Positions 3,173 to 44,532 of a stretch of DNA of 64,000 nucleotides are shown one piece after another. How positions within the stretch are numbered: position 1 is the first letter of the stretch; each line of letters opens with the position of its first letter. The stretch covers positions 28,615 through 92,614 of the forward strand of contig CACCVU010000001.1 of assembly GCA_902549495.1 (NCBI GenBank). The letters are read 5' to 3'. Made by a program: the position numbers and the translations under genes. The notes below the pieces were generated by a model. That model worked only from the letters and a program-made list of their open reading frames with translations, had not been told where the DNA came from and ran no database searches. The stretch comes from an uncultured Pelagibacteraceae bacterium. Its GTDB lineage: Bacteria > Pseudomonadota > Alphaproteobacteria > Pelagibacterales > Pelagibacteraceae.

Positions 3173-3517
3173 TTACTTTAATTTACCAAAAAGGTTTAAA
3201 AGTATTACTCCTGAAACAATTAAAATTAATCCAACATTAGCATAAAGATCAGGAGTTTGATTATATTTAAATATACCAAATAATGTAACTGCTGTTATCG
3301 TTAATGCTCCATAAGATGCATATGCAGTTGACACAGGAATAATGCTCATCGCTTTAGACAAACAAAAAATGCAAATGATAATACTTAAAATACAAAAAAT
3401 TGTTGGGCCGAGTTTTGTAAAACTTTGGGTAGTTTTCAAAAAACTGTTAGATGCTATACCGGTAATAATAGCTAAAAATAAATAAATATATCCTGAAAAT
3501 AAACTAAGACTTTTCAT
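3173..3517 (-). CDS. SMR/DMT family small multidrug transporter
   Basis: Four hydrophobic helices, LKTTQSFT, IPVSTAYA, GLILIVSGVILL; the usual TM1 Glu is not evident. Confidence 0.8.
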   Translation of the reverse strand: MKSLSLFSGYIYLFLAIITGIASNSFLKTTQSFTKLGPTIFCILSIIICIFCLSKAMSIIPVSTAYASYGALTITAVTLFGIFKYNQTPDLYANVGLILIVSGVILLNLFGKLK

Positions 3518-4463
3518 TATACTTTCCCAAACTAAATTGACCTCGATCACGAAAACGGACTAGCCATTTGACCATTGCTTTTTCTACATCTGCAGGCTCA
3601 ATGTCTAGATCCTTAAGTGTTAAGTGATTATTTGATACAATATTATCTTGTTCTGAGAGTATCTCACATTGATCTCTTGTAAGAATAGGAGGAAAAGGTA
3701 ACAAATCAGTTATGGCACTTTGAATTTTTGCAAGAGGCATAGGCATCTGAATAATTAATCTTTTTTTTCCAATAGCTTGCATAATAGACTCTATCATTTC
3801 TTTAAAAGTTAAAATTTTAGGTCCTCCTATCTCATAAATTTTGCCAAAATTATCTTTCAATTCAATTGCTTTCATTATTGCTTTAACAACATCAGCTACT
3901 AATATTGGCTGAAATTTGTAACGAAGATTTGGTATAGGGATTACAGGAAAAAAACTAAGTCGTGCAAAAAGGTTGCTGAAGTTTGAAGAATGACTCTCAA
4001 CAACAGAGGGTCTAAGTATAACAGAATTTTTAAAATTATTTAATACATTTATCTCCCCTTGAAATTTTGATCTTTGATATAACGAGCGACTTTCTTTAGA
4101 TGCGCCTATGGCCGAAACTTGAATCAGCTTTTCAACATTTGACCTTGCACAAATTTTTGCAATCGCCTCAGGAAGCTTTGCATGTAGTTTATAAAATTTT
4201 TGTTTTCTTGTTTCATAAAGAATGCCAACAAGATTAATTACAACATCAGAATTTTTAATTGCATTTTCAACTTCACTTAAATTTTCAGTATTCCATTCTA
4301 ATAATTCAATAGCTCCAGGTGTGGCTTGCGTCTTCAAATGTCCATTTTGGAAAGCTGACCTTGTTACACAAATAACTCTATAGTTTTTTTTGATAAGAGG
4401 CCCGATTAAATTTGATCCGATTTGACCAGACCCACCAAACAAGGTGACAATTTTATTTTTCAT
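3504..4463 (-). CDS. Complex I NDUFA9-like NAD-dependent epimerase/dehydratase
   Basis: LFGGSGQIG Rossmann motif, VINLVGILYE, FQPILVADV, YEIGGP. Confidence 0.85.
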   Translation of the reverse strand: MKNKIVTLFGGSGQIGSNLIGPLIKKNYRVICVTRSAFQNGHLKTQATPGAIELLEWNTENLSEVENAIKNSDVVINLVGILYETRKQKFYKLHAKLPEAIAKICARSNVEKLIQVSAIGASKESRSLYQRSKFQGEINVLNNFKNSVILRPSVVESHSSNFSNLFARLSFFPVIPIPNLRYKFQPILVADVVKAIMKAIELKDNFGKIYEIGGPKILTFKEMIESIMQAIGKKRLIIQMPMPLAKIQSAITDLLPFPPILTRDQCEILSEQDNIVSNNHLTLKDLDIEPADVEKAMVKWLVRFRDRGQFSLGKYNEKS

Positions 4464-4482
4464 GATATTAATTAAGAATTAT

Positions 4483-5106
4483 ATGAAAATTCATAAAATA
4501 CAAGGCGACTTAACTACAGAAATAACATCCAAAATTAAAGATTACTGCAGTATTGATTGTGAGATGCAGGGCTTAAAACCTGACAGAGATAAATTATCGA
4601 TTGTGTCTTTAACTGCTGACGAAGAAAACGTTTATATTATTCAACCTAATAAAGATTATAAAGCTCCTAATTTAGTTTCAATTTTAGAAAATGAAAAAAT
4701 TTTAAAAATTTTTCACTTTGCAAGAATGGACGTTCATTTTTTAGATGTATATTTAAAAACAAACGTTAAAAATTATTACTGCACTAAGCTAATGTCTCGA
4801 CTTGCTAGAACGTGGACACAAAACCATGGCCTTAAAGACCTCACTTCGGAGATTTGTAAAGTCAAATTGGATAAAAAATATGGTAGTTCGACGGATTGGT
4901 CCAAAGGATTGGAGTCAATTTCAGATAACGAACTTAATTATGCCGCAAAAGATTGCTTTTATCTTAAAAAAATTAAAGACTCTTTAGAAAAAATTTTGAA
5001 AAGAGAAAACAGGTTTGATTTATTCGTAAGTACCATGAATGGTTTAGAAAGTAGAATTAAATTAGATAAGGCAGGGTTTAAAGATCCAGATATTTTTGAA
5101 CATTAA
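4483..5106 (+). CDS. rnd: Ribonuclease D-like 3'-5' exonuclease
   Basis: SIDCE, KIFHFARMD, CTKLMSRLART, YAAKD (DEDDy); upstream of kdsD as in other alphaproteobacteria. Confidence 0.85.
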   Translation: MKIHKIQGDLTTEITSKIKDYCSIDCEMQGLKPDRDKLSIVSLTADEENVYIIQPNKDYKAPNLVSILENEKILKIFHFARMDVHFLDVYLKTNVKNYYCTKLMSRLARTWTQNHGLKDLTSEICKVKLDKKYGSSTDWSKGLESISDNELNYAAKDCFYLKKIKDSLEKILKRENRFDLFVSTMNGLESRIKLDKAGFKDPDIFEH

Positions 5107-6080
5107 TGAGAAAAAATAATTATATTGCACTTGCAAAAAAGGCTTCGAGTATTCAAATAAATGAATTAAAAAAAATAAAAAAAGTTTTCAACCATTCCTT
5201 TGTAAAAGCAGTTGACCTTATCTTAAATTGTAAAGGAAAAATCATATTTGCAGGCGTTGGAAAATCAGGTTTAATCGCTAAAAAAATTTCAGCAACTTTT
5301 TCCAGTGTCGGAATACCAAGCTTTTTTTGTGACCCTGCTCAAGCACTACACGGAGATATGGGCCAAATAGAAAAAAAAGATGTTCTAATTATTTTTTCAT
5401 ATTCTGGAAATACTTCCGAACTTAACAATATGTTAAAGTACGCAAATAGATATAGGATTAAAGTGATCGGTGTTGCCTCTAAAACAGATAGCATTCTGTT
5501 AAAAGCAAGTGATATAAAATTAGTTCTCCCAAAAGTGAGAGAGTCAGATGTCACTGGTATGGTGCCAACTTCAAGCACAACAATAACATTACTTTTGGGT
5601 GATTGTTTAGCTACAACAGTAATGCATCAAAAAAAATTTTCTAAAGAAAGATTTAAAATTTTTCATCCTGGAGGGAATATTGGAAACTCTTTGCTGCTAG
5701 CAAAAGATATAATGATTGGTGGTAATAAAATGCCAGTAATTAGTTATAAAAAAAGTTTTAAAGAAGCTCTTAAAATTATGAATAAAAAAAAACTTGGTAT
5801 AGTTGTAATTCTTAAAAATAGATTTATTAAAGGTCTTGTGACTGACGGAGATTTAAGAAGAGAACTGAAGAATTTTTCCAATAGAAAAAATCTTAACGAT
5901 TTTATGACTAAGAATCCATTAGTAGTAAACGAGAATATGCCCGCTTCAAAGGCATTAGCAATAATGAATGAAAAAAAAATAACAAGTTTGTTAATTGTTT
6001 CTGATAAAGATTATAAAAAGGGCAACAAAGTTTTAAAAGGAATTATTCACATTCATTTTCTTTTACAAAAGGGTATCTGA
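5106..6080 (+). CDS. kdsD: Arabinose-5-phosphate isomerase (KpsF/GutQ, SIS+CBS)
   Basis: GVGKSG, HGDMG, SYSGNT, PTSST, FHPGG, TDGDLRR. Confidence 0.95.
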   Translation: MRKNNYIALAKKASSIQINELKKIKKVFNHSFVKAVDLILNCKGKIIFAGVGKSGLIAKKISATFSSVGIPSFFCDPAQALHGDMGQIEKKDVLIIFSYSGNTSELNNMLKYANRYRIKVIGVASKTDSILLKASDIKLVLPKVRESDVTGMVPTSSTTITLLLGDCLATTVMHQKKFSKERFKIFHPGGNIGNSLLLAKDIMIGGNKMPVISYKKSFKEALKIMNKKKLGIVVILKNRFIKGLVTDGDLRRELKNFSNRKNLNDFMTKNPLVVNENMPASKALAIMNEKKITSLLIVSDKDYKKGNKVLKGIIHIHFLLQKGI

Positions 6081-6682
6081 TGATTGAAAGAAAGAAAAAA
6101 ATAAAAATTATCCAAATAACTTTATTATTTGTGGGTATGTTGATCATTTTTTTTACTTATATAAAAAAAGAAAATATATCAGAAGACAAAATCATAACCT
6201 CAGAAGCTCAAAAAAAAATAAAGCGACAAATGGAAAATCAGTCTGAACAAGATATTTTTTACAATATTGAATATTCAGGATTAGATTTAGCTGGGAATAG
6301 ATATATTCTAAAGGCAAGCGAAGCAACAACAGATAAGACTAATCAAGATATTGTTAATATGAAATCTACGACAGCAATATTTTATTTTAAAGATGGAACA
6401 GTTTTAAATGTTTCATCTGAGAATGGAGTTTATAACAACAAGTCACTCGATATGCTTTTCTCTGGAAAAGTAAGAGCTTCCTACATTGAAAGTAAACTAT
6501 TTGCAGATAAAGCAGAGTATTCAAATTCAGAGGGTTTTTTAACTATTACAAAAAATGTAATTATAGAGGACTCTAGAGGAACAATGATTGCAGATGAACT
6601 TTTATTTGATATTAAAAAGCAAACACTTAAAATAGCAGCTTTTAAAGATAAGAAAATTAATGCTAATATAAAATTAAAATGA
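6080..6682 (+). CDS. lptC: LPS export periplasmic protein LptC
   Basis: N-terminal TM anchor plus beta-rich domain (YSGLDLAGNRY), between kdsD and lptB. Confidence 0.75.
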   Translation: MIERKKKIKIIQITLLFVGMLIIFFTYIKKENISEDKIITSEAQKKIKRQMENQSEQDIFYNIEYSGLDLAGNRYILKASEATTDKTNQDIVNMKSTTAIFYFKDGTVLNVSSENGVYNNKSLDMLFSGKVRASYIESKLFADKAEYSNSEGFLTITKNVIIEDSRGTMIADELLFDIKKQTLKIAAFKDKKINANIKLK

Positions 6683-7440
6683 AAAAAGGTTTTAGAATTT
6701 TAAAATTTAAGAAATCTTCTCCAATTTTAGAAATTAAAAATTTATCAAAAAGTTTTGATGGTCGGCCTATACTTAAAAAGCTCTCTCTAAAAGTTTATCC
6801 AGGTGAGATCGTAGGTTTGCTTGGTCCTAATGGAGCTGGTAAGAGTACACTATTTAATATTGCTATAGGTGCAGAAGATGCAGATAGCGGTGAAGTTTTT
6901 GTAAACGGAAAAAATATTACTCAAATTCCAATTCATTTAAGAGCTAAACTAGGCTTAGGTTACATGCCCCAACTTAGATCACTTTTTGATGATCTCAGTG
7001 TTTTTAATAATCTGATGGGGCTGATTCAATTATTTGAAAAGAATAATAGAAAAGCTAAAGAAAAATGTGAGTTGCTCCTAGAACAATTTAACCTAACTCA
7101 TCTACGTTCAATAACAGCAGGAAATGTCAGCGGAGGTGAAGCTAAGAGAATTTCTCTTGCTAGAATTATGATTAATAATCCAAAAATTGTTTTATTAGAT
7201 GAATCATTTTCTCATATAGATCCAATTCATGTGCAAGAAATGCAAAAATATATAATGAAAATTCAATCGCAAGGTGTTGCATGTATCTTAAGCGAACATG
7301 GCCTAGAAAATTTATTTAAAATTACTGATCGTAACTATTTGATTAACGATGGTCATATAGTAGCCGAAGGCACTAAACAAGAGTTACTTAAAAATTCTGA
7401 AGCAGTAAAAAGTTATTTTGGATTGGATTTTTCCAAGTAA
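6679..7440 (+). CDS. lptB: LPS export ABC ATPase LptB (divergent)
   Basis: GLLGPNGAGKST Walker A, VSGGE signature, LLDE Walker B, YFG C-terminus; synteny. Confidence 0.85.
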   Translation: MKKGFRILKFKKSSPILEIKNLSKSFDGRPILKKLSLKVYPGEIVGLLGPNGAGKSTLFNIAIGAEDADSGEVFVNGKNITQIPIHLRAKLGLGYMPQLRSLFDDLSVFNNLMGLIQLFEKNNRKAKEKCELLLEQFNLTHLRSITAGNVSGGEAKRISLARIMINNPKIVLLDESFSHIDPIHVQEMQKYIMKIQSQGVACILSEHGLENLFKITDRNYLINDGHIVAEGTKQELLKNSEAVKSYFGLDFSK

Positions 7441-7442
7441 AA

Positions 7443-8792
7443 ATGTCTCATAAAAGTTTTTCTATTAAAATAAAAAATAGAATTAAACCATATAATAAAG
7501 CAATTGAAGTTGACTCAGACAAGTCTTTGTCAATCAGGTCTTTTTTAATTGGCTCAATTTGCGAAAATATTTCAACAGTGACAAATATATTAGAATCTGA
7601 GGATGTTAAAAGTACTATAGAGGCATGTAAAAAACTTGGAGTAAAAATTTTAAAATTGGGTCCAGGTTCGTATAAAATTCATGGTAAAGGTCTTGGGTCT
7701 CTATTCGCAAAAAAAAATACAATCATAAACTGTTTCAATTCGGGAACCTGTGCACGTTTGCTTTTAGGAATTTTATCAACAACCCCAAATATAGAAATTA
7801 AAATTACTGGTGATAGCTCTTTAAAAAAGCGGAGTATGAAAAAATTAGTTCAACTGTTATCAAAGTTTGGAGCAACTTTTCTTCCAAAAAATAAATTTAA
7901 TTTTCCTCTCAAAATAATTTCAACAGATATGCCTATAGGTATTAATTATTTTGCAGGGGTAAGTGCCCAACTTAAGTCTGCAGTTATACTTGCTGGACTT
8001 AATAGTTATGGAAATACAAAAATTATTGAGAGCATTAAATCACGTGATCATACCGAAAATTTGTTAAAAAAAAATACAGCAGCAATTAAAATAAAGTATG
8101 GTAAGAAAAAAATAATAGAAGTTTATGGAAAAAAAAGTCTTAAACAAATCGGATTAAATGTTTCTGGCGACCCTTCTAGTGCAGCTTTTTTTACTGCATT
8201 AACTTTACTTAATAAAAACTCATTTATTAAGATAAAAAATGTAGGTTTAAACCCTACAAGAACAGGTTTTTATAAATTGCTTAAAATACACAAAGCAAAG
8301 ATTAAATTTTCGAATGTTAAAAAGGATAACAATGAACTTAGAGGAGATATATTGGTAAAGAGTTGCAAGCTAAGGCCTATAACTTCGCCAGGTTACTTTT
8401 ATGCTAGTACAGCTGATGAATATCCAATACTTTTTGTATTAGCAGGACTTACTAAAGGTGTATCTGTGTTCAAAAACTTAGAAGATCTTTTTAACAAGGA
8501 ATCAAATCGCGTAAAGGAAATGCAAAAAGTTCTTAAGCAGGTTGGTATTAAAACTATCTCAACTAAGACTGAGTTGAAAATTTATGGTAAAGGAATGATA
8601 GACGCCAGTAACAAAACAATTACTATACAAAAAGGTATCCACGATCACAGAATTCATATGGCAAGTTTTGTCCTAGCATTATTAACTGGCTCAACAACTA
8701 GATTAAAAGGCTTTGAAACAGTTTTCACATCTAGTCCGTCATTTTTAAAAATAATGAGACAATTAGGAGCAAAATTTGAAATTAAAAAATAA
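7443..8792 (+). CDS. aroA: 3-phosphoshikimate 1-carboxyvinyltransferase
   Basis: DKSLSIR, NSGT, SAQLKSA, SRDHTE, GDPSSAAF, KESNR, DHRI. Confidence 0.95.
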   Translation: MSHKSFSIKIKNRIKPYNKAIEVDSDKSLSIRSFLIGSICENISTVTNILESEDVKSTIEACKKLGVKILKLGPGSYKIHGKGLGSLFAKKNTIINCFNSGTCARLLLGILSTTPNIEIKITGDSSLKKRSMKKLVQLLSKFGATFLPKNKFNFPLKIISTDMPIGINYFAGVSAQLKSAVILAGLNSYGNTKIIESIKSRDHTENLLKKNTAAIKIKYGKKKIIEVYGKKSLKQIGLNVSGDPSSAAFFTALTLLNKNSFIKIKNVGLNPTRTGFYKLLKIHKAKIKFSNVKKDNNELRGDILVKSCKLRPITSPGYFYASTADEYPILFVLAGLTKGVSVFKNLEDLFNKESNRVKEMQKVLKQVGIKTISTKTELKIYGKGMIDASNKTITIQKGIHDHRIHMASFVLALLTGSTTRLKGFETVFTSSPSFLKIMRQLGAKFEIKK

Positions 8793-9420
8793 AAATTTAA
8801 AAATCACTTGTGACGGTGGTGCTGCAACAGGGAAAACAACTGGCGCAAAAATGATAGCTAAAAAATATGGTCTTAATTTTTTATCGAGCGGATTACTTTA
8901 TAGATATTCTAGTTATTTAATTTTAAAATATAAACCAAAAAACTTGACTTCTTTTCTGAGAAAAAAATTTAAAAGACTTGATTATCAAAAATTAAAAAAA
9001 ATTAATTTACATACTCCTAAAATATCATCTCACAGTGCAGAAATAGCAAAAAAATTGAGTGTGAGAAAAATTCTTAAAAGGTATCAATTAATGTTTATTA
9101 AAAAAAATTTAGGTTGTGTATTAGAGGGCCGTGATGCGAGTACAAAAATTTGTCCAGAATCTGATGTAAAATTTTTCTTCGAGTGTAATTTAGACACAGC
9201 TGCCAGAAGAAGATATAAAGAGCTAAAAAAAAGAGGAGTTAAAATTAATTTTAAAAGCGTGAAAAAGGCTTTAAAATTGAGGAATATTTCAGATAAAAAA
9301 AGGAAATATAGCCCTTTAAAAAAACATAAAAATGCAGTAATTGTGGACACGAAAAAGTTGAATAAACAAGCTATGTTAAAAAAAATGATTAAACATGTGG
9401 AAAGAGTTTTAAATAATTAA
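8776..9420 (+). CDS. cmk: Cytidylate kinase
   Basis: DGGAATGKTT P-loop, SSGLLYR, VLEGRD, ARRRYKE; between aroA and rpsA. Confidence 0.9.
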   Translation: MKLKNKNLKITCDGGAATGKTTGAKMIAKKYGLNFLSSGLLYRYSSYLILKYKPKNLTSFLRKKFKRLDYQKLKKINLHTPKISSHSAEIAKKLSVRKILKRYQLMFIKKNLGCVLEGRDASTKICPESDVKFFFECNLDTAARRRYKELKKRGVKINFKSVKKALKLRNISDKKRKYSPLKKHKNAVIVDTKKLNKQAMLKKMIKHVERVLNN

Positions 9421-9421
9421 T

Positions 9422-11152
9422 ATGTCATCTGAGCAGACATTAATTGATAAAAATCCAGCACAAAAAGAGTTCTCAAAACTCTTAGAAGACGATTTCAAAG
9501 ATAGAAAGCTAGTCGAAAATAGAATTGTAAAAGCTAAGGTAATAGAAATATTAAAAGGTTATGTAATCGTGGATGCCCGAGGTAAATCAGAGGCAATGAT
9601 TCCTCGATCAGAATTCAAAGAAGAAGAAATCGCTAAACTTAAAGTAGGATCATCAATTAATTGTTTTGTTGAGAGAATAGAAAGTATGAAAACTGGTGAA
9701 ATAGTTTTAAGTTATGAAAAAGCTAAGTCCTTAGCTGCATGGGAAAAATGTATCACTGCACACGAGAATAAAGAAGAATTAACTGGAGTAGTGACCAATA
9801 AAATTAAGGGAGGGTATGTCTGCAAACTTTTTTCTGGAGCTATCTCAGCATTTTTACCTACTAGCCAGCTAGACCGAGTTCCCATAAAAGGTTCTGCTGT
9901 AGACCGTTTAATGAACACTCCAATAAAGGTAATGATTGTTAGGATTGATAGAGCTAGAGGAAACTTGGCCGTGAGTCGTAGGGAAGTATTATCTAAAAAA
10001 GTAAATGCGGAGACAGCTGAAGCCTTGAAAGAAATTAAGGAAAATGACATTGTAACTTCGACGGTCCACAATATTAACGATTGGGCTGTTTTCACCACTT
10101 ATAAAAATATACAAATGATGTGTCATGTTTCGGATTTGAGTTTTTCTCGTGTCAAAAAACCATCAGACTTAGTTTCTATAGGTGACAAATTAAAAGTTCG
10201 TATCATCAAGATAGATAAAACTACAAACAAAGTATCGTGTTCGGTCAAAGCTCTCAATGAGGATCCGTATTTAAATATTGAAAAACGCTATAAGGTTGGC
10301 GAGATTTACGAAGGAACAGTGTCATCCATAAAAACTTACGGTGCCTTTGTGCAGATTGAGTCTGGAATAGAAGCCCTATGTCATTCTTCGGAGATTTCAC
10401 ACCTAAATAGGAATATAAATCCTAGTAAAGTATTTTCAGTTTCAGAAAAAATTAAGTTTAAAATTTTAAGCATTGATAAGGAAAATAGACGTCTGTCGAT
10501 CTCGCATAAAGCGTGTTTTACCAATCCATGGGATAAAATACAAGATCAACTCGGAGAAAAGGTAAAAGTTAAAGTGAATAACGTAACTGACAAAGCCGTC
10601 TTTGCGGAGATAGAAGACTCTGGTCTGAATTGCATGATGCACTACAAAGAAATCGATTGGCTCGAGAATATAGATAGTCTTAAAAAATTTAAAAAAGGAA
10701 TGACTTTGACTGTAAAAATCATTGAAGTAAAAGATGAACGTATAAGAATTAGTTTGCGAGCTTGTGAAAAAGATCCATTAGACTGGTTTAAGGATAATAA
10801 GAAAAAGGTAGGTTCAGTAATATCTACAAAGGTAGTTGAAGTTTTAAAATCTGGAGTCAAAGTAGCTGTAGACCCTGAAAAAAAAGTAATTGTTATGATT
10901 AAAAAGAATCAATTAGCTATTGAACTTGCTGATTGTCGCCCAGAAATATACAGTGTGGGTAATACTATGGCAGATGCGCTCATTGAGGAATTAGATTACG
11001 AGAAACGTAGAGTAGTGTTAAGTCCTAAAGCAGCCCAAAAAAAAGAGCAAGACTCGCTAATCAAAAAGTTTGGAGAAGGTGCCGCAAAATCAGGGGCCAC
11101 GTTGAAGTCAATATTCGATCGAGCTTTGGGTAATAAAGAGAAAAAAAAATAA
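9422..11152 (+). CDS. rpsA: 30S ribosomal protein S1
   Basis: Six S1 repeats, AFLPTSQLD, VSRR, YGAFV, SGATLKSIF tail. Confidence 0.95.
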   Translation: MSSEQTLIDKNPAQKEFSKLLEDDFKDRKLVENRIVKAKVIEILKGYVIVDARGKSEAMIPRSEFKEEEIAKLKVGSSINCFVERIESMKTGEIVLSYEKAKSLAAWEKCITAHENKEELTGVVTNKIKGGYVCKLFSGAISAFLPTSQLDRVPIKGSAVDRLMNTPIKVMIVRIDRARGNLAVSRREVLSKKVNAETAEALKEIKENDIVTSTVHNINDWAVFTTYKNIQMMCHVSDLSFSRVKKPSDLVSIGDKLKVRIIKIDKTTNKVSCSVKALNEDPYLNIEKRYKVGEIYEGTVSSIKTYGAFVQIESGIEALCHSSEISHLNRNINPSKVFSVSEKIKFKILSIDKENRRLSISHKACFTNPWDKIQDQLGEKVKVKVNNVTDKAVFAEIEDSGLNCMMHYKEIDWLENIDSLKKFKKGMTLTVKIIEVKDERIRISLRACEKDPLDWFKDNKKKVGSVISTKVVEVLKSGVKVAVDPEKKVIVMIKKNQLAIELADCRPEIYSVGNTMADALIEELDYEKRRVVLSPKAAQKKEQDSLIKKFGEGAAKSGATLKSIFDRALGNKEKKK

Positions 11153-11437
11153 TTGTCGAGAAAAAAGATTATTAAAGAATTAAAAATAAAAAATCCAGCA
11201 CTGACAATATTAGAAATTGAAAACATACTAGATATTTTTACAGAAAGCATAGTCAATGCATTGAAGGACGGCCAAGCAATTCACCTAAGGCGCCTAGGTC
11301 GAATTTATCTAAAAAAACTTAAAGCTAATGCAAACCTAAGAAATCCAAGAACTAATAAATTAATCTACCGTCCAGAACGAATTAAGATTAGATTTAGAGC
11401 ATCAAAAGAATTAAATAAAAAGATAAATGAAAATTAA
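11153..11437 (+). CDS. ihfB: Integration host factor beta/HU-family DNA-binding protein
   Basis: RNPRT arm and FRASKEL; follows rpsA; TTG start. Confidence 0.8.
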   Translation: MSRKKIIKELKIKNPALTILEIENILDIFTESIVNALKDGQAIHLRRLGRIYLKKLKANANLRNPRTNKLIYRPERIKIRFRASKELNKKINEN

Positions 11438-12104
11438 AAAAAAAAAGGTATTTATTGCTTGCGATACGACCGATCCAAACAAAATAAATCAAATAATCAA
11501 AAAAACTCAAAATTCAAAAATAAATTTTGGATATAAATTTGGGTTACAGTTTTTAAACTCTAAAAATGGCAGAAAATTTGTTTCAAACCTAAAGAATAAA
11601 ATTACTTTTGGAGACTATAAATTAGCAGATATTCCTAATACCTGTGTATCAGCTGTAAAAGCTGTTCGAGATTTAAAATTAAATTATATTACAATTCATA
11701 TAAGTTCAGGCTTGAAAGCGCTTAAGGCCGTGAAAAGAGTTTCAGGTAAAACAAAATTAGTTGGTGTTACGATACTTACTTCGCTTGATAATAAATCTTT
11801 AAAAGAAATTGGATTTGATAAAAATTTAAAGAAATTAGTGCAACATCAGGCTAGGTTGGCAACTAAAGCAAAATTAGATGCAATTGTATGTAGTCCCCAT
11901 GAAATTAAGATTGTTAGAAGAGTGTTTAAAAAAGAAATAATTACTCCAGGCATTAGATTATTAGGAGACAGTAAAGGTGATCAAAAAAGAGTGATGTCAC
12001 CCAAACAAGCTTTTCATAATGGGGCAACGGCCTTAGTAATGGGTAGAAGTCTGACAGATAATATTGAAAAGAATATTAAAAAACTTATCAAAGATTTAAA
12101 TTAA
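11427..12104 (+). CDS. pyrF: Orotidine-5'-phosphate decarboxylase
   Basis: DYKLADIPNT, GVTILTS, TPGIR, DQKR, VMGRS. Confidence 0.95.
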   Translation: MKIKKKKVFIACDTTDPNKINQIIKKTQNSKINFGYKFGLQFLNSKNGRKFVSNLKNKITFGDYKLADIPNTCVSAVKAVRDLKLNYITIHISSGLKALKAVKRVSGKTKLVGVTILTSLDNKSLKEIGFDKNLKKLVQHQARLATKAKLDAIVCSPHEIKIVRRVFKKEIITPGIRLLGDSKGDQKRVMSPKQAFHNGATALVMGRSLTDNIEKNIKKLIKDLN

Positions 12105-12105
12105 T

Positions 12106-29817: not shown

Positions 29818-29820
29818 TAG

Positions 29821-30616: not shown

Positions 30617-30620
30617 AAAT

Positions 30621-31121: not shown

Positions 31122-31325
31122 ATGAAAATATTATCTACTTTTATGTTGTTGCTTATGTTGACTAATTGTGCTGGAAGCAACATGGCCAAAGTAAAATTTG
31201 GCAAAAGATGTACAGCTGCCGATAAAAATGGTTTAAAAGAAAGCTCGTATGTTTGGGTCATTTCAAAAGAAGCACTTAAATCATTTGATAAGAGAATAAA
31301 TAAATCTAATTGTTCAGATATTTAA
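31122..31325 (+). CDS. Small lipoprotein
   Basis: Signal peptide with LTNC lipobox. Confidence 0.75.
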   Translation: MKILSTFMLLLMLTNCAGSNMAKVKFGKRCTAADKNGLKESSYVWVISKEALKSFDKRINKSNCSDI

Positions 31326-31353
31326 TTTCCTTTTAAATTTAATTGTCTGTGCT

Positions 31354-31381
31354 AATAAGGGGTATGCGAATACCCCTTATT
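31354..31381 (+). promoter_or_regulatory. Perfect 12-bp hairpin with GNRA loop covering SD and start codon
   Basis: AATAAGGGGTAT-GCGA-ATACCCCTTATT. Confidence 0.6.
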
Positions 31382-35755: not shown

Positions 35756-35802
35756 CTTATTGTCCCAATTTATTGAAATAAAATATAATATAAATTTTAG
35801 AA

Positions 35803-36759
35803 ATGAAAGTTCTGATTCTCATAAATAAAGTAGGCCTTGGAGACTGTATAATTCACATTAATTACATACATGAAATCTCAAAAAAATACGAAAAACCAGT
35901 TTCAATACTAGCTAAAGAAAATACAAGAGCAAAAGATCTTTTTCTAGATGATCCGCATATTGATGAGGTGATTACATTGGATCGCTTAAATGATAATTCA
36001 GGTAGCCATGATGGTCTAAGTGGGTTTTTTAAATTAGCAAGAGACATAAAAGAGAAAAAATTTGATAAAGTATTCATCTTTAATAGTTCTCTAAGATATT
36101 TTTTAATTTGTAAATTTGCAGGTATAAAAAAAATAGCTCAATATCCTTTATTTAAAAAAAGAGGACAACATGTTGTCAACACTGCTAAAATCTTTACCGA
36201 GAATGAACTTAATAAAATAGTATCAACCCAACCAGAACTTTTAATCAGTGAAGACAAAATTTTAAAAGCTAGAAAAGATGTGTCTCAAAGTCACAAAAAC
36301 ATTGTGCTGGGTATTAGTGCATCAGGCCAGACAAAACGCTGGGGTATTAAAAATTTTATAAAATTAATTGAAAAAATAAATGAAAAGCATCCTTCTAAAT
36401 TTTATCTAGCTGCTGGAAAAAATGATCAACAATTGATAGATGAAATATTAAATTCAAATATAGGTTCTAATTGTATTTCTTTAAATAATTTAAAGATAAA
36501 TGAGATGCTTCCTATAATAGCAAATTGTAATTTGTATTGTGGAAATGATACCGGTTTTATGCATATTAGTGCTGCTCTTAATTTAAAAACTTTAGCTTTA
36601 TTTATGGATAGTCCAGTACTTGCTTATGGAAAATATTCAAAAAATATTAATGCAATAATTCCAGAGGGAGAAACTGAGGAAACAACAACTCATGACACCA
36701 AAGGTTCAATCTCTTTTGATAAAGTTTATAATAAATGTATTGAGCTTTTAACTAACTAA
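35803..36759 (+). CDS. Glycosyltransferase family 9 (heptosyltransferase-like)
   Basis: GLGD, KRWG, GNDTGFMHISAAL. Confidence 0.9.
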   Translation: MKVLILINKVGLGDCIIHINYIHEISKKYEKPVSILAKENTRAKDLFLDDPHIDEVITLDRLNDNSGSHDGLSGFFKLARDIKEKKFDKVFIFNSSLRYFLICKFAGIKKIAQYPLFKKRGQHVVNTAKIFTENELNKIVSTQPELLISEDKILKARKDVSQSHKNIVLGISASGQTKRWGIKNFIKLIEKINEKHPSKFYLAAGKNDQQLIDEILNSNIGSNCISLNNLKINEMLPIIANCNLYCGNDTGFMHISAALNLKTLALFMDSPVLAYGKYSKNINAIIPEGETEETTTHDTKGSISFDKVYNKCIELLTN

Positions 36760-37277: not shown

Positions 37278-39362
37278 ATGAATATACCAAAACTTAAGAA
37301 AATAAAGACTACGAAAAATTATCACGGGATTCCACTAGAAGATAACTATTCGTGGGTGGACCAGTCAAATATACTTGAAGTTTTAAAGGACCCAAAAAAG
37401 TTAAATACTGAGGTCAAGGATTATATAGAGGCTAATAACAAAGTAACCGAAGACTACTTCACAGACGTTAAAGAATTACAGAAAAATTTATTTAACGAAA
37501 TCAAAGGAAAAATTAAATTAGATGATACTGGATTAAAATATAAAGATAAAAGATATTATTATTGGGCAAAAACAGAAGCCAAGGGTAATTACGGTAAGAG
37601 AATGAGACAGCTCATTGATGGTTCTAAACCTGAAGAGGTTTTTTTTGATGGAGATTTGGAGAAGAAGAAATCTGGTTCAGAATACTTTGGGGTTGGAACT
37701 GTTAGCACTTCTTACTGTGATAATTTTATTGCTTATTCTTTAGATTTAAAAGGATCAGAGTATTACACAATTTATTTGAGAGATCTTAGAACAGGAAAAA
37801 ATGAAAAAGATGTAATTGAAAATACAAGCGGAAGCGTCACATGGGCTTTAGATAATAAAAGCTTTTTTTACTCGAAATTAGATCAATATCATAGACCAAG
37901 ACAAATTTTCAAACATGTTCTTGGAACACCTAACGATCAAGATCAACTAATATTTGAGGAAAAAGACGAAACTTTTACTTGTGGTATTGGTATTACCTCT
38001 GATGAAAAATATTTCATTATTGGGACTTCTGATCACATAACAACTGAAGAATATTTTTTTTCTACAGATGCTAAAGAAATTAAACCCACTCTTTTTCAAA
38101 AGAGAAAAAATGATATTCGTTATTCAATAGACTCTTGGCAAGGTTATTTTTATGTTCACACTAATGAAGAAGCTAGGGACTATAAGGTGCTTAGATGTAA
38201 GACTAGTCAGATAGATAAATTAGAAGTTTTTATCCCAGCAAAAAAAGAGACTGTTATCGGTGGTTTTGAGTTTTTAGATGATTATATTATTAGATCAGAA
38301 AAGTCTGATGCTATACCAAAACTGTTTGTAAGAAATATTCAAACTAACAAAGAAGAGGAAATTAAAATTTCAGATGAACCAATAGGTGTACCTGGTGTTT
38401 CTTTAATGCAAAGAGATACAAATACTACATTGATAAGAGTTGGTTGGGAGAGTATGGCAACTCCAGGAAGAGTTTATGAGTATGATATCGTTACTAAAGA
38501 AAAAAAATTAGTTAAAGAAACAGAAATACCATCTGGTCATGATCCTAGCAAATATGTAGTAGAAAGAATTAAAGCTCGGTCACATGATGGTCGTATGGTT
38601 CCAATTAGTTTAATAAGATTAAAAGACTCAAAACAAGACGGAAAATCTAAAGTCTTACTCTATGCTTATGGTGCTTATAAACATAGCATCTCACCATCTT
38701 TTAGCGCCTCTAGATTTTGTTTGATCGACAGAGGTATTACTTTTGCAATAGCTCACATAAGGGGCGGCGGCGATTTGGGAGACATTTGGCATACGGAAGG
38801 TAAAAAGAAATTAAAGAAAAATACTTTTTTAGATTATATAGCATGTGCAAACCATCTAATTGAGCAAAGGTATACTTATAAAGGTGGAATCTGTTTTCTT
38901 GGCGGCAGCGCTGGAGGTTTAACTGGATCAGGAGTAGTCAATATGGCATCAGAATTATTTTTTTCTGTTTTGCTCTTAGTTCCATTTGTAGATGTAATGA
39001 CAACAATGTTAAATGAAAAATTACCTTTGACTCCAGGGGAATGGGAAATGTGGGGAAATCCAATTAAAAGCAAAGAGTATTTTGAGTATATTCTATCTTA
39101 CTCCCCTTATAATAATCTTGAGAAAAAAGATTATCCGCCGATGCTCATCACGACATCTTTATTTGATAATCGAGTTCTTTATTCTGAGCCTGTAAAGTAT
39201 ATTGCAAAATTAAGAGATTTAAAAACTGATAATAATAATCAATTACTGAAATGTAAGATGAAAGAAAGTGGTCATAGCGGCGCTAGTGGCCGGGATAACG
39301 CAATTAACGAGTTAGCAGAAGAATATTCTTTTATTTTAAAATCTGCAAAAATTTTAAAATAA
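37278..39362 (+). CDS. ptrB: Oligopeptidase B (S9A)
   Basis: EDNYSW, YAYGAY, HIRGGG, GGSAGG, DNRV, GH. Confidence 0.92.
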   Translation: MNIPKLKKIKTTKNYHGIPLEDNYSWVDQSNILEVLKDPKKLNTEVKDYIEANNKVTEDYFTDVKELQKNLFNEIKGKIKLDDTGLKYKDKRYYYWAKTEAKGNYGKRMRQLIDGSKPEEVFFDGDLEKKKSGSEYFGVGTVSTSYCDNFIAYSLDLKGSEYYTIYLRDLRTGKNEKDVIENTSGSVTWALDNKSFFYSKLDQYHRPRQIFKHVLGTPNDQDQLIFEEKDETFTCGIGITSDEKYFIIGTSDHITTEEYFFSTDAKEIKPTLFQKRKNDIRYSIDSWQGYFYVHTNEEARDYKVLRCKTSQIDKLEVFIPAKKETVIGGFEFLDDYIIRSEKSDAIPKLFVRNIQTNKEEEIKISDEPIGVPGVSLMQRDTNTTLIRVGWESMATPGRVYEYDIVTKEKKLVKETEIPSGHDPSKYVVERIKARSHDGRMVPISLIRLKDSKQDGKSKVLLYAYGAYKHSISPSFSASRFCLIDRGITFAIAHIRGGGDLGDIWHTEGKKKLKKNTFLDYIACANHLIEQRYTYKGGICFLGGSAGGLTGSGVVNMASELFFSVLLLVPFVDVMTTMLNEKLPLTPGEWEMWGNPIKSKEYFEYILSYSPYNNLEKKDYPPMLITTSLFDNRVLYSEPVKYIAKLRDLKTDNNNQLLKCKMKESGHSGASGRDNAINELAEEYSFILKSAKILK

Positions 39363-40372: not shown

Positions 40373-41680
40373 ATGATGGAAAAATATTTTGAGTACAAAA
40401 AAAATAAAACTAATTTTAGGACAGAAGTAATAGCTGGAACCTCGACATTTATGACGATGTGTTACATATTATTTCTCCAGCCTTTCATCCTATCTGGAGA
40501 ATTCGCGGGTCCTGAAAAAGGTTTTTTTGATTTCGGCGCTGTATTTACTGCGACCGTAATTATTACTGCTGCAGCTTGCTTTTTGATGGGACTGTATGGC
40601 CGTACCTGGCCGATAGGGCTCTCTTGCGGCATGGGCATAAATGCCTTCATTGCATTCGGTGTAGTAGCTGGAATGGGTTATACTCCACAACAAGCACTTG
40701 GCGCTTGCTTAGCAGCGGGTATTTTATTTCTAATAATATCGTTAACACCTTTGAGAGCATGGTTAATCAACTCGATTCCAAAAAGTTTAAAGTTAGGTAT
40801 CGGCGGAGGGATTGGATTGTTCTTGGCGATTATAGGGTTGGAAATTATGGGTGTGGTTGCAGATCATCCTGTTACTTTAGTTACTCTAGGCGATTTAAAA
40901 AATCCTTTAACCTTGCTTGGTTGTTTAGCTTTTGTATCTATGATTATTTTAGAAAAATATAAAATTAAAGGTAATATTATTATTGGGATATTATTTTTCA
41001 GTATAATTGCTTGGGTTGCAGGATTAGCTAAATTTAATGGGGTAGTAAGTGCTCCACCACCTATGACATATCTTTTTGCATTTGATATGTCTGCAATTTT
41101 TACAGCTGGAATGATAACAATAGTGTTTACTTTACTTTTTATCGATTTCTTTGATACGGCTGGGACTTTAACTTCTGTAGCAAATGTTGCAGGAAAAGTT
41201 GGTAAAGATGGAAAGGTGAAAGATATTGATAAAGCAATGTTATCAGATAGTGCTTCAACAGTTGGTGGAGCACTTTTGGGAACCTCAACAGTAACTTCAT
41301 TCGTTGAAAGTGGAGCAGGTGTAAAAGCAGGTGGACGTACGGGAATGACATCAATAGTGATTGGTGTCTTATTTTTATCGTGCTTATTTTTTTCACCTTT
41401 AGCTACAAGCCTACCTAAAGAAATAGACGGTGCTGCTTTACTTTATGTATCAATTTTATTTGTTAGAAATATTGTTGATATAGAATGGAATGATATTGCG
41501 GAGTCCTCAAGTTCTGTAGTTGCTCTTGTAGCCATGCCGCTCACATACTCGATCAGTAACGGCATAGCCCTTGCATTTATTACTTACGCTTTGGTAAAGA
41601 TATTTACAGGGCAGTTTTCAAAAACTTCACCGGCTATTTGGGTGATAGCAATTTTAAGCTTCTTAAGCTTTATTGCTTAA
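40373..41680 (+). CDS. NCS2/AzgA-family purine permease
   Basis: TEVIAG, GMGINAF, GIGLFL, DFFDTAGT, FVESGAGV..GGRTG, PLTYSISNG. Confidence 0.92.
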   Translation: MMEKYFEYKKNKTNFRTEVIAGTSTFMTMCYILFLQPFILSGEFAGPEKGFFDFGAVFTATVIITAAACFLMGLYGRTWPIGLSCGMGINAFIAFGVVAGMGYTPQQALGACLAAGILFLIISLTPLRAWLINSIPKSLKLGIGGGIGLFLAIIGLEIMGVVADHPVTLVTLGDLKNPLTLLGCLAFVSMIILEKYKIKGNIIIGILFFSIIAWVAGLAKFNGVVSAPPPMTYLFAFDMSAIFTAGMITIVFTLLFIDFFDTAGTLTSVANVAGKVGKDGKVKDIDKAMLSDSASTVGGALLGTSTVTSFVESGAGVKAGGRTGMTSIVIGVLFLSCLFFSPLATSLPKEIDGAALLYVSILFVRNIVDIEWNDIAESSSSVVALVAMPLTYSISNGIALAFITYALVKIFTGQFSKTSPAIWVIAILSFLSFIA

Positions 41681-42269: not shown

Positions 42270-42557
42270 ATGAAAGGATACGTAGTTTGTGTTTATAAAA
42301 GTATAAGTAATGATGAAAAATTAAAAGAATACGCTGTCAAAGCTAAAGTAGCGGTTGAAAAATATAAGGGAAAATTTTTAATTAGAGGTGGAAGATCTAC
42401 ATCTAATGAGGGCGATAAATCTCCAAGAACAGTTGTAATTGAGTTTCCATCCTATGATGAAGCCAATAACTTTTACAATTCAAAAGAATATCAAGATGCA
42501 CATTCTATTCTTGAAGGCTACGCAGAACGTCAACATCAAACGATTGAGGGCGCTTAA
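42270..42557 (+). CDS. DUF1330 family protein
   Basis: GKFLIRGG, RTVVIEFPS, FYNSKEYQ. Confidence 0.88.
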   Translation: MKGYVVCVYKSISNDEKLKEYAVKAKVAVEKYKGKFLIRGGRSTSNEGDKSPRTVVIEFPSYDEANNFYNSKEYQDAHSILEGYAERQHQTIEGA

Positions 42558-43177
42558 TATTGAATTGGTTCATCGTCAATACTGCGCCAGAGATACCACG
42601 TAGCAACTGAACAATAAGGTGTAAATTTTTTATAAAGTTTGTCTAAAAAACTTTTTGGAGGAAAGTATTTTTTCTTATAATTATTTGATATTGCTCTTAA
42701 TAAGCCAATATCTTGTAAAGGCCAAATATTAGAACGATTGTAAGTGAATAGTAAAATCATTTCTGCACTCCATCTGCCTATTTGTCTTAAAGATGATAAG
42801 TATTGAATGGCTTCCTCGTCATTCATGTTTTTGATTAATTTTGGATCAAATTCTTTTCTTACCATTTTTATAGCAAGTTCTTTAATTCCTTTTGCTTTTT
42901 GTTTGGTCATGCCACAAGATTTTATCTGCGAAATTGATAATTTGGCAACTTGAGTTGGCTTAATTTTCCCAACTTTTTTTTGAAATCGATTAAATACTGC
43001 TGAAGCCGAAAAAGTTGATAATTGCTGGCCTATTACGCTCTTGCACAATGAATAAAAAATATCTTTTCTTGTTGTAAGGAATTTATCGTTATATTTTATA
43101 ATAAGTTTTTTTAGTACTTTATCTTTTTTAGATAAAATTTTTATTGCTTTTGGCCAGTAACTTGGATACTTGCTCAC
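42554..43177 (-). CDS. DNA-3-methyladenine glycosylase (AlkA/HhH-GPD)
   Basis: GQQLS, IGRWSAEM, WPLQDIG, ATWYLW. Confidence 0.9.
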   Translation of the reverse strand: MSKYPSYWPKAIKILSKKDKVLKKLIIKYNDKFLTTRKDIFYSLCKSVIGQQLSTFSASAVFNRFQKKVGKIKPTQVAKLSISQIKSCGMTKQKAKGIKELAIKMVRKEFDPKLIKNMNDEEAIQYLSSLRQIGRWSAEMILLFTYNRSNIWPLQDIGLLRAISNNYKKKYFPPKSFLDKLYKKFTPYCSVATWYLWRSIDDEPIQY

Positions 43178-44052
43178 GGCCTAGGACTTATAACTTGTTT
43201 TTTAAGTTGAGACTCTCTCATAAAAATAATTACAGAACTTGCAATAATTAAACCAGCGCCCAAAAGAGTTAGCACTTTTGGTATTTCGCCCCAAATGAAA
43301 TATCCTAATAAAATTGCAAATACTAAATTTAAATATTTTGTTGGTGTGACTAGTGATGCTTCTGCAATTCTTAGTGAAACGGTAAGTAAAATATTAGCAA
43401 CTGAGCCAATTATCCCAGTAAAAATTAGAAGAAATAGTTCAAATTTTGATGGCATGACCCAGCCAAAAGGAAGTGTTGCTAAACCAACTACCATACTCAG
43501 TAAAGAAAAGTATAAAGCAATTCTATAATTAGGCTCGGTAGAAGATAAGCTTCTTATGCTTAGAGCTACGCATGCAAAGAAAATACAAAAAATTATTGGA
43601 AATAAGTAATAAATATTTAATTCTTCATAAGCTGGTTTAACAATCATTAACATTCCAATAAACCCAATGAAAACAGCAGACCACCTTCTAATACCCACTT
43701 TTTCGGATAAAAAAAATATTGAACCTAAGGTGACGAAGATTGGTCCTCCAAAAGTCAAACTTACAACATCTGCTAAAGGTATCTCTCTTAGAGCAATAAA
43801 TAGAGCAACTATTGCTAACGTCCCAGTTACAGCTCTGAAAGCATGTAGTTTAGGTCTGGTAGTTTTATAAAAAGTTTTAAATTCATTCCTAGGTACAAGC
43901 AGTAATATGGGTATCAAACCAAAAAAAAATCTTGCAAATAACACTTCACCTACAGGAAACTGGTCTAACCATTTTACACAAGCATCCATCATGGCAAAAC
44001 ATGCCACAGATGCTACCCCGTACAATACGCCTAATTGATTTCGTGCTAACAA
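43174..44052 (-). CDS. DMT/EamA family transporter
   Basis: About 10 TMs, FLSEKVGIRRW, IWGEIP. Confidence 0.9.
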   Translation of the reverse strand: MLARNQLGVLYGVASVACFAMMDACVKWLDQFPVGEVLFARFFFGLIPILLLVPRNEFKTFYKTTRPKLHAFRAVTGTLAIVALFIALREIPLADVVSLTFGGPIFVTLGSIFFLSEKVGIRRWSAVFIGFIGMLMIVKPAYEELNIYYLFPIIFCIFFACVALSIRSLSSTEPNYRIALYFSLLSMVVGLATLPFGWVMPSKFELFLLIFTGIIGSVANILLTVSLRIAEASLVTPTKYLNLVFAILLGYFIWGEIPKVLTLLGAGLIIASSVIIFMRESQLKKQVISPRP

Positions 44053-44085
44053 TCTAATATCCTCACAACTCTATATAATTACTTT

Positions 44086-44532
44086 ATGAAGAAATGTACA
44101 CTTGCTCTTGGCTGTTTTTGGAAACCTGAGGAAAACTTCAAAAATAAGCTGGGTATAATTGAAACAGAAGTCGGCTATGCCGGTGGATTATCTGATAAAG
44201 TTACATATGAAGAAGTATGTAAAGGTGACACTGGTCATGCAGAAGTTGTAAGACTTACCTTTGATGAAAAATTAATTTCCTTTAAAAAAATTTTAGATTT
44301 ATTTTTCAAAATGCACGATCCTACTCAAAAAGATATGCAATATCCTGATGTGGGAACTCAATATAGAAGTGAAATATTTTATGAGGATGACATTCAAAAA
44401 GCTGAAGCTAAAGAAATTTTAGAAATTTTTAATAAGGAGTTTAATGGAAAAATTCAAACTAATATTTCTCGGCTCAAAAATTATTGTAAAGCAGAAGAAT
44501 ATCATCAAAAATACTTAGAAAAAAATAGATAA
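44086..44532 (+). CDS. msrA: Peptide-methionine (S)-S-oxide reductase
   Basis: GCFW, GYAGG, YEEVC, GHAE, HDPT, QYRS, AEEYHQKY. Confidence 0.95.
   Translation: MKKCTLALGCFWKPEENFKNKLGIIETEVGYAGGLSDKVTYEEVCKGDTGHAEVVRLTFDEKLISFKKILDLFFKMHDPTQKDMQYPDVGTQYRSEIFYEDDIQKAEAKEILEIFNKEFNGKIQTNISRLKNYCKAEEYHQKYLEKNR

Follow-up and report, generated by a model that had tools for sequence, protein, structure and literature searches.

The window analysed is the whole stretch of 64,000 nucleotides given as G000:C1:28615-92614, from a Pelagibacterales assembly of 682 kb in 33 contigs that is 58% complete with 0.08% contamination. The GC content of the window is about 30% and the genes are densely packed; genomes of the genus are about 1 Mb. 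Between 3.3 and 36.7 kb lies a block of core genes, about 33 kb long, that is hyper-polymorphic within the genus, and at its centre the adjacent core genes sbcB and rmuC are surrounded by a variable cassette. The genes of the block are conserved in order and, with one exception, intact, and they occur in discrete, deeply diverged allele classes. In the following, G000 is the source genome and g1 its genus; g6, g9 and g10 are other genera, and G007, G520, G444 and the like are genomes compared with G000. The closest of them overall is G520, which matches G000 at 92-94% of nucleotides both along the right flank and on a second contig. The syntenic region was collected from 12 further g1 genomes, two sister-genus genomes (g9 and g10), three genomes from g6 and three from another family.

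1-3310, unstranded: left flank, the tail of about 16 kb at ~100% nucleotide identity to G007
3311-35750, unstranded: hyper-polymorphic core-gene block, defined by divergence from relatives
3311-3400, unstranded: left recombination breakpoint, inside the SMR-family gene 3173-3550
12707-19347, unstranded: diversity maximum (TrpB, TrpA, AccD, FolC, Trx, SbcB), within-genus mean protein identity 42-53%
17496-22477, unstranded: type-1 variable cassette around the core sbcB/rmuC pair, from Pfam, PADLOC and PHROGs searches and cross-genome comparison
35750-36750, unstranded: right boundary against G007, identity 64% before and 88% after ~35.75 kb, 84% before and 95% after ~36.75 kb

The left part of the block encodes, in order, SMR, an epimerase-like protein, a 3'-5' exonuclease, KpsF, LptC, LptB, AroA, Cmk, RpsA, an IHF-like protein and PyrF. 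These are followed by TrpF, TrpB, TrpA, AccD, FolC, Trx, the cassette, ARH, RlmN, a flavodoxin-like protein, FAH, SRAP and TauD, and on the right by PurK, PurE, YbgC, an MBL-fold gene, open reading frame (ORF) 32424 and CMAS-like and DHDPS-like genes. According to Pfam the left flank holds a GT4 glycosyltransferase, a metallophosphoesterase, a DAG-kinase-like gene and the start of the SMR gene.

A genome-wide comparison of reciprocal-best-hit protein pairs shows that the block is set apart from the rest of the genome. Median identity to G007 is 93% outside the block (n=229, 14 pairs below 60%) and 62% inside (n=32, 15 below 60%), a contrast with p=1.9e-8 in the Fisher test and p=4.7e-14 in the Mann-Whitney test. 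The corresponding medians for G520 are 95% outside (n=148) and 69% inside (n=37; Fisher p=2.7e-5, Mann-Whitney p=7.7e-10). The original prediction, made from the sequence of the window alone, was that contiguous, intact core genes here are unusually divergent and that the effect follows position and not function; the first claim is confirmed and the second supported. The nucleotide identity to G007 is ~100% from position 1 to ~3,300, about 65-75% or unalignable at 3.3-36 kb and 76-95% beyond 36 kb. Genes to the right of 36.7 kb have 81-99% identity to both G520 and G007.

The left edge is abrupt, with two mismatches to G007 over 2401-3310 and 99-100% identity in each 100 bp as far as 3300, then 76% at 3301-3400 and 45-77% per 100 bp onward. 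The divergence had been described as a gradient centred at about 17-25 kb that fades by about 37-45 kb. The mean pairwise protein identity among the 13 g1 genomes does reach its minimum near that centre, at TrpB-SbcB (12.7-19.3 kb), and climbs on both sides, and the effect does come to an end on the right. The end is stepwise, however, at 35.75-36.75 kb against G007, and the pairwise pattern is not a smooth gradient but a mosaic with sharp breakpoints, such as that at 3311. For TrpB, TrpA, AccD, Trx and ORF 31343 the diversity within the genus equals or exceeds the divergence to another genus. The stretch of ~16 kb with ~100% identity between G000 and G007 corresponds to about 16,000-31,900 of G000:C1 and stops exactly at the block edge, G007 being the representative of a different species. 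Synonymous differences per site (pS) on the left flank amount to 0.00 against G007 and 0.08-0.13 against G520 and G470, and the stretch looks like the result of a very recent exchange or a gene-specific sweep.

Single-linkage clustering at 75% protein identity divides the alleles of each block gene in the 13 g1 genomes into 2-11 discrete classes, and the classes of one gene are only 30-75% identical to each other. The allele closest to that of G000 changes gene by gene among five genomes, at 91-100% identity. The nearest alleles are found in G520 for LptB (97%), AroA (86%), SbcB (96%) and TauD (99%), in G444 for RpsA (94%), TrpB and TrpA (95%), FolC (91%), ORFs 25280-27963 (98-100%) and PurE (98%), and in G470 for ORF 3504 (94%), TrpB (96%), FolC (95%), RlmN (96%) and PurK (96%); close alleles also occur for TrpB in G005 (93%) and for SRAP in G514 (97%). 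Adjacent genes disagree in this respect. Against G444, TrpA is 95% identical, AccD 60%, FolC 91%, Trx 30% and SbcB 94%, and RlmN is only 38% identical to G520 and G444 despite the close alleles that these genomes hold for other genes. Some G000 alleles lack a close relative among the compared genomes, identity being no higher than 38% for Trx, 42% for the MBL-fold gene 31343 and 60% for AccD. KpsF is 82% identical although it lies inside the block. A G444 sequence matching LptB at 27-31% was disregarded, since it is not the true orthologue but the product of a contig gap. Two segments stand out from their surroundings:

25902-28773, plus strand: recently exchanged, G444-like segment, 99-100% amino acid identity and pS 0.00-0.06 against G444
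30621-31049, minus strand: YbgC-like thioesterase, a canonical allele patch, 94-97% identical to G007, G011 and G009

Elsewhere G000 and G444 have a pS of 0.58-0.73 (five representative right-flank genes) and about 76% nucleotide identity over 40-60 kb, and the exchange between species at 25.9-28.8 kb must therefore be very recent. A Tara scaffold, which is an independent assembly, joins a G000-like AccD (91%) to a TrpBA that is 99% identical to the type of G520 and ~30% to that of G000, and to an SbcB of type 2; single genes thus reassort independently of their neighbours. Some classes are shared beyond the genus. Three SbcB classes each unite a g1 allele with a different g6 genome in the IQ-TREE analysis (ultrafast bootstrap, UFBoot, 93-100), and the variants designated D-type of pyrF-trpA, AccD and SbcB, all carried by G000, group with alleles of three g6 genomes.

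Substitution rates at nonsynonymous (dN) and synonymous (dS) sites were estimated by the Nei-Gojobori method and are given together with the uncorrected proportions pN and pS. Between classes pS is 0.6-0.8, which means that synonymous sites are saturated, against 0.1-0.4 on the flanks for G000 and G520. Close alleles within a class have a dN/dS of 0.04-0.2, as strict as on the flanks; examples are TrpB against G470 (pN/pS 0.03/0.45, dN/dS 0.04), SbcB against G520 (0.03/0.34, dN/dS 0.06) and FolC against G470 (0.02/0.23, dN/dS 0.09). The D-type TrpB and TrpA have a dN/dS of 0.04-0.10 against G470, G444 and G005. When signs of decay were looked for, the ORFs proved to be intact and of the length of their orthologues, with dN/dS 0.04-0.31. 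Searches for second copies in G000, and for a canonical AccD or SbcB in G444, G520, G470 and G005, found none, although the absence of second copies is unproven because the genomes searched are 58-81% complete. Pseudogenisation and relaxed constraint were rejected because of the intact frames, the low dN/dS and the lack of second copies, and in this the original prediction was right. Its statement that there are no frameshifts or stops holds for the block except for one small gene:

24778-25312, minus strand: small hypothetical gene split over two frames, a single ORF of 154 amino acids in G007

This gene is in one frame in G520 and G444, is split also in G016 and G015, and has no match in Pfam. 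Judged from their sequences, the remaining alleles appear to be functional sole copies under normal purifying selection today.

The rate of protein change differs between the genes of the block. On the flanks the members of the genus are equidistant from the g9 outgroup, with PolA for example at 75% throughout. Within the block, the rare alleles of some genes are much further from the outgroup than the canonical ones:

AccD, identity to outgroup: canonical alleles 63-74%, rare alleles 30-35%
SbcB, identity to outgroup: canonical alleles 62-64%, rare alleles 27-28%
ORF 4444, identity to outgroup: canonical alleles 67-83%, rare alleles 49-53%
ORF 31343, identity to outgroup: canonical alleles 83-85%, rare allele 37%
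RpsA, identity to outgroup: canonical alleles 53-63%, rare alleles 42-48%

Tajima relative-rate tests were made for 16 block genes with the distant family as outgroup, a test that is valid for nested and deep alleles alike. An excess of unique changes in G000 over G007 was found for RpsA (67:33, p<0.001), SbcB (88:52), ORF 4444 (33:15), AccD (46:29; 60:27 against G016) and, weakly, TrpB (88:61). No excess over G007 was found for ORF 3504, KpsF, LptB, AroA, Cmk, IHF, PyrF, TrpF, TrpA, FolC and Trx. The aggregate for the block is 533:372 (1.43-fold, p=9e-8), but removal of the five significant genes brings it down to 211:182 (p=0.14), and the flanks, at 213:186 (p=0.18), show no imbalance. Accelerated protein evolution, which had been proposed for the region as a whole, is thus seen in 5 of 16 genes and not in the other 11. 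In the minority of rare alleles that show it (RpsA, AccD, SbcB, ORF 4444 and weakly TrpB) there has been about 1.5 to 5 times more amino acid change than in the canonical alleles.

Scores against family hidden Markov models (HMMs) and the phylogenetic trees separate the same kinds of allele. AccD scores against TIGR00515 are graded, from 294-325 bits for canonical alleles and outgroup genera to 276 for G512, 201 for G514 and 118-136 for five D-type alleles. RpsA scores against TIGR00717 are 439-523 bits in canonical alleles and outgroups, 398 in G520 and 338-376 in rare alleles, and SbcB scores against the PADLOC model are 304 bits for the canonical, 217 for the type 2 and 97 for the D-type protein. 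Such a deficit is absent for LptB, Cmk and TrpF when G000 is compared with G007. In the IQ-TREE analysis the RpsA of G000 nests within the genus on a branch about 5 times longer, rare RpsA branches overall being about 2.5 to 9 times longer; rare and canonical alleles together form a clade with UFBoot 100 that leaves G017, g9 and g10 outside. D-type AccD has a stem of 1.0 substitutions per site and stands beside g6 genomes. FastTree trees instead place the rare alleles of ORF 4444, FolC (class d) and LptB below the split of g1, g9 and g10, with normal root-to-tip lengths. The block is a mixture of some old classes evolving at a normal rate and a few that are truly accelerated, since Tajima tests, HMM scores and trees differ by gene.

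9422-11152, plus strand: RpsA, rare allele, closest to that of G444 (94%), no more than 62% identity to the remaining species of the genus with a match
14769-15734, plus strand: AccD, D-type, sole copy, 118 bits against TIGR00515 compared with 294-325 for canonical and outgroup alleles
16947-17267, minus strand: thioredoxin with the motif FCGPC, at most 38% identity among the 13 genomes compared
31343-32431, plus strand: MBL-fold hydrolase, at most 42% identical to all others, canonical alleles 83-85% to the g9 outgroup
12707-14772, plus strand: TrpB and TrpA, D-type, one of at least three tryptophan-synthase lineages filling this slot across the order

The MBL-fold gene has a Tajima ratio of 180:9 with a near outgroup. 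Thioredoxin falls into seven classes among the 13 genomes, and the G007 thioredoxin (L010:858-1175) is itself accelerated relative to the type found in G016 (Tajima 29:8; 50% against 86% identity to g9).

The original prediction had rested on deviations of short motifs from remembered family consensus sequences. Several of these deviations belong to rare alleles alone: LptB DESFSHID/LSEHG, Trx FCGPC, RlmN MGSGDF, AccD SGGMDVKG, PurK GSGQLCSF/HNSNH and PurE GSNND/FAGMSAHLAG. Others are not local to the block, because Cmk DGGAATGK, TrpF AGSIS/DLSSSLE and FolC GESGKFT are unchanged in relatives with a canonical block and are typical of the genus. The oddities of G005 are different ones (LptB DEIWSMVD, Trx WCSAC) and are confined to genes within its own divergent block. 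For tryptophan synthase the remembered consensus is a poor yardstick, since most SAR11 TrpB and TrpA are themselves non-canonical, with VVSEANGGAHK and DTGAGYAG instead of the textbook HTGAHK and GAGQHG motifs; the canonical motif was found in a few genomes of the other family (G021, G022). Acceleration should therefore not be judged from textbook motifs. A syntenic survey of this slot (window 12707-14772 and L009, L017-L020, L049-L051, L061 and L081) showed that at least three TrpB/TrpA lineages alternate across the order, namely the canonical one (G021, G022), the common SAR11 one (G007, G019) and the D-type (G000, G005, G444, G470 and three g6 genomes). A TrpB type that shares 65% identity with the one in genus g10 occurs in G520 and G514.

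The cassette around sbcB and rmuC has the following members in G000:

17496-17957: ORF with no assigned function
17908-19347: D-type SbcB
19355-20716: S24/CI-like protein
20910-21293: ORF with no assigned function
21293-22477: RmuC

The two core genes are adjacent in every haplotype and the cargo that surrounds them differs. Type 1 (G000, G520, G444 and G005) has an S24/CI-like protein of 411-457 amino acids and two ORFs without assigned function, to which G444 adds a PIF1-like helicase. In G000 the S24/CI-like protein has 453 amino acids, of which residues 239-383 match CI-like/S24 repressor families (phrog_4, phrog_6201); it has no match in Pfam and is 60-70% identical among the four carrier genomes. 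Type 2 (G470, G514 and the Tara scaffold) has an ARPP-1 domain protein, ORFs of 527 and 73 amino acids and an MkoA-like SF1 helicase of 1120 amino acids, with an additional DndB-family gene in the Tara scaffold. The type 2 loci, which include RmuC, are L067:1932-5750 and L066:18333-20000 in G470 and L100:7717-13738 in the Tara scaffold, and the type 2 cassette may be an undescribed defence or conflict system. Type 3 (G007, G016 and G017) consists of sbcB and rmuC without cargo. The window holds no tRNA, and a reading of the locus as a tRNA or integration site was dropped.

The likely explanation is that the block is an extreme variant of the divergent flanks of replacement islands, in which long-lived alleles are reshuffled by homologous recombination around the replaceable sbcB/rmuC cassette. 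Each core gene here exists as several discrete classes, for some genes common to other genera. The divergence of the classes is long-standing, as the saturated synonymous sites show, and alleles pass from species to species singly or in small groups of genes. Homologous recombination is taken to be the mechanism because synteny is conserved and breakpoints are sharp, and the block of G000 looks accelerated because a rare combination of alleles sits in a genome that elsewhere resembles its nearest relatives at 92-95%. Frequency-dependent selection on the cassette may keep the polymorphism, with the flanks hitchhiking, and the high divergence would itself hinder recombination between classes. 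The extra change in some rare alleles may come from a small effective population size or from re-adaptation after transfer; some recombination-associated mutagenesis is a further candidate.

Several observations weigh against this explanation. The divergence, with protein identities of 28-60% for rpsA, accD, trpBA, sbcB and trx, and the length of ~33 kb both go far beyond those of published flanks. The diversity maximum lies off-centre, on the left side of the cassette, and polymorphism extends to genomes that lack cargo, for which reasons the cassette is unproven as the driver. Recombination alone does not account for the raised rates and poor HMM scores seen in some rare alleles, the cargo appears to be DNA-processing or defence-like and not of the surface-glycan type of classic replacement islands, and no donor lineage was identified. 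Position 3311 is unbridged among the metagenome contigs listed, where short unitigs end near 3162-3269, and the exact allele combination of G000 is therefore not independently proven.

A supergene-like, multi-allelic zone is considered unlikely. Rare haplotypes of essential genes, comprising ribosomal protein S1, AccD, tryptophan synthase, thioredoxin and exonuclease I, would here persist across genera and evolve several times faster than the common alleles. The acceleration would stem from their rarity, from linkage to the cassette and from shielding against recombination by their own divergence, and the zone would be maintained by balancing selection, possibly together with recombination-associated mutagenesis. 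The locus would then be a natural site at which core proteins evolve faster and diversify.

Repeated homologous import of pieces of the block from an unsampled related lineage that evolves fast, shares the order of genes and is slightly richer in GC is more doubtful still. Such introgression would account for the long stems and low family-HMM scores of D-type AccD and SbcB, for the grouping of D-type pyrF-trpA, AccD and SbcB with three g6 genomes, and for the rare classes of ORF 4444, FolC and LptB that branch below the genus split without rate excess. The GC content at third codon positions (GC3) of the block alleles of G000 is 0.231 compared with 0.202 in their G007 orthologues (p=0.001), with no shift on the flanks (0.209 against 0.210). 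The shift could reflect an origin slightly richer in GC or, equally well, GC-biased gene conversion at a hotspot of recombination; cysteine content does not differ significantly (0.0133 against 0.0124, p=0.41). The distribution of the alleles argues against a single donor, however. RpsA of the G000 type was found in one of 177 other members of the genus (G444, 94%), and among 5.8 billion proteins it is represented by only a few small clusters of 89-96% identity, intermediates having 73% and 65%; when 401 genomes from across the order were searched, the RpsA of no genus proved closer than that of g1 itself, and rare RpsA alleles nest in the crown of the genus. D-type TrpB occurs in 3 of 274 g6 species; the 35 g1 species of the same draw lack it, as does every other genus among the 400 members of the order sampled. 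D-type AccD amounts to merely ~109 clusters among the same 5.8 billion proteins, in a continuous range from 95% to 44% identity. No overall divergent genome carries the D-type, no lineage was found with D-type TrpB or AccD as its norm, and there are 3-10 classes per gene where introgression would predict two.

The original prediction had instead proposed a persistent local mutagenic process under purifying selection. Such a process, tied to the sbcB/S24-like/rmuC module or to frequent breaks and their repair at a recombination hotspot, would raise the mutation rate over tens of kilobases, while selection preserved the function of the genes. Mutagenesis associated with breaks or recombination would be positional and independent of gene function, and the break-associated kind is known to act over long distances in E. 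coli. In agreement with it, the diversity peak lies beside the DNA-processing genes SbcB, RmuC and SRAP; the divergent halo expected in other carriers of the 19355-21293 locus was found in G520, G444 and G005, so that with G000 all four genomes with the type-1 cassette have one; and the aggregate excess of unique changes and the GC3 shift of the block point the same way. Divergence of this origin should be graded, proportional to lineage and without shared alleles. The alleles are discrete and bimodal with sharp junctions, and those of G000 are not private to its lineage but are held in common, at 91-100% identity and in changing combinations, with G520, G444, G470, G514, G005 and the Tara scaffold, distant genomes among them carrying identical alleles. 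Neighbouring genes such as TrpA and AccD differ sharply in their identity to G444, close alleles diverge slowly with low dN/dS, the rate excess is confined to five genes, and genomes without the insert are polymorphic as well. Pfam, PADLOC and PHROGs searches with the five central ORFs gave only SbcB-like, RmuC and S24/CI-like matches, and no polymerase, reverse transcriptase, deaminase or integrase. Sharp edges, grouping with alleles of distant genomes, in part across genera, and three motifs independent of the locus are largely the outcomes that the prediction had itself set against its reading, and mutagenesis as the main cause is highly improbable. Recombining allele pools predict the discrete classes, the sharp junctions, the sharing with distant genomes, the saturation and the present constraint, all of which contradict mutagenesis in situ.

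Metagenomic reads show that the block exists in other samples. Between 35 and 74% of the 31-mers of 2301-12300 are contained in 20 runs from 12 studies, and four runs cover all bins of 1501-21500 at 95% identity or more. The k-mer depth is hundreds to ~1,500 on the left flank and ~5-80 in the block, so the block alleles of G000 are minority variants. A metagenome contig of 2.2 kb joins Cmk, RpsA, IHF and PyrF. The G444 assembly splits into five contigs exactly across the region (C6, C20, C13, C17 and C2; L069-L075), which fits a high population micro-diversity that tangles the assembly graph. A contig made chimeric by the joining of co-occurring populations at conserved k-mers, which the 33 contigs of a genome 58% complete, the G007-identical stretch ending exactly at the block edge, the unitigs ending short of 3311 and the fragmented G444 assembly might suggest, is the least probable explanation of all, because the same architecture of shared flank, mosaic block and cassette is found on independent long contigs of G520 (285 kb), G005 (161 kb) and G470 (76 kb) and on the Tara scaffold, the block k-mers recur in the 20 runs, the 2.2-kb contig joins four of the block genes, and chimerism could yield the combination seen in G000 but not the allele classes themselves.

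Low identity is also found outside the block. A smaller patch of core genes with 51-65% identity to G007 and G520 lies at G000:C10:24200-25483 and C19:2825-7572, which on the coordinate scale of G007 is some 20 kb upstream of contig C1, and coincides with contig breaks in G000; further small patches occur at C9:14.3-17.2 kb and C2:65-70 kb. In the window, two unrelated-looking versions of a gene for 309 amino acids (60073-61002), with 28-30% identity, alternate across the genus; one is 67-71% identical to the g9 outgroup and the other 50-73% to the g10 outgroup. The G470 and G514 alleles of a gene for 694 amino acids (37278-39362) are 70% identical to g9 but 51-52% to the allele of G000, which suggests exchange between genera outside the main block. 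Deep allele classes are found as well at genes 40373-41680, 42554-43177, 49926-50423 and 50424-50816.

The reshuffling of long-lived alleles around the sbcB/rmuC cassette bears on how far core genes can diverge within one genus while synteny and function are kept, since versions of rpsA, accD and trpBA here are 30-60% identical. Because versions swap between species and even genera, marker-gene phylogenies, species boundaries based on average nucleotide or amino acid identity (ANI, AAI) and metagenome binning may mislead locally. The divergent and presumably functional variants of AccD, TrpB/TrpA, PurE and thioredoxin are natural material for enzymology. The locus takes the concept of divergent island flanks to an extreme, and is a concrete place where balancing selection on an accessory cassette might hold tens of kilobases of housekeeping genes in ancient polymorphism.

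Among known systems, the E. coli 'bastions of polymorphism' around rfb and hsd, reportedly described by Milkman and colleagues and by Nelson and Selander, with gnd hitchhiking with rfb, are a similar case: housekeeping genes become hyper-variable through linkage to, and co-transfer with, a locus under diversifying selection, the variation decaying with distance. The flanks of rfb and hsd are said to differ by a few percent of nucleotides, whereas here synonymous sites are saturated and proteins are 40-70% different.

Within a SAR11 genomospecies, syntenic core-gene clusters with an AAI of ~69% compared with 91.9% genome-wide have been read as variant alleles that recombination keeps in the population (Molina-Pardines et al. 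2025, PMC11796062). Those are eight small regions in clade Ia.3/VII, mostly of O-chain, transporter and unannotated genes, unlike the one large block of central metabolism and translation described here, which belongs to a different genus and has far lower identities.

The closest likeness is to replacement flexible genomic islands, whose bordering genes show peaks of mostly synonymous divergence with low dN/dS, also in Pelagibacter (Lopez-Perez, Martin-Cuadrado & Rodriguez-Valera 2014, PMC4033161). As in those islands, alternative cassettes occupy one conserved locus, in the 13 genomes and the Tara scaffold; the divergence of the bordering core genes is sharply raised with low dN/dS and is asymmetric around the island, and near-identical segments are found in otherwise divergent genomes. 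The cargo differs, being O-chain or flagellar glycosylation genes in the published islands and here S24/CI-like and ARPP-1 proteins, SF1 (MkoA-like) and PIF1 helicases and DndB, which are DNA-processing or defence-like and include no surface-structure or glycosylation genes. The flank extends over ~33 kb here and over one or a few genes there, essential genes reach 28-60% protein identity, and each gene has many classes, some of them cross-genus, in a comparison made between species and genera and not, as for the published islands, within species.

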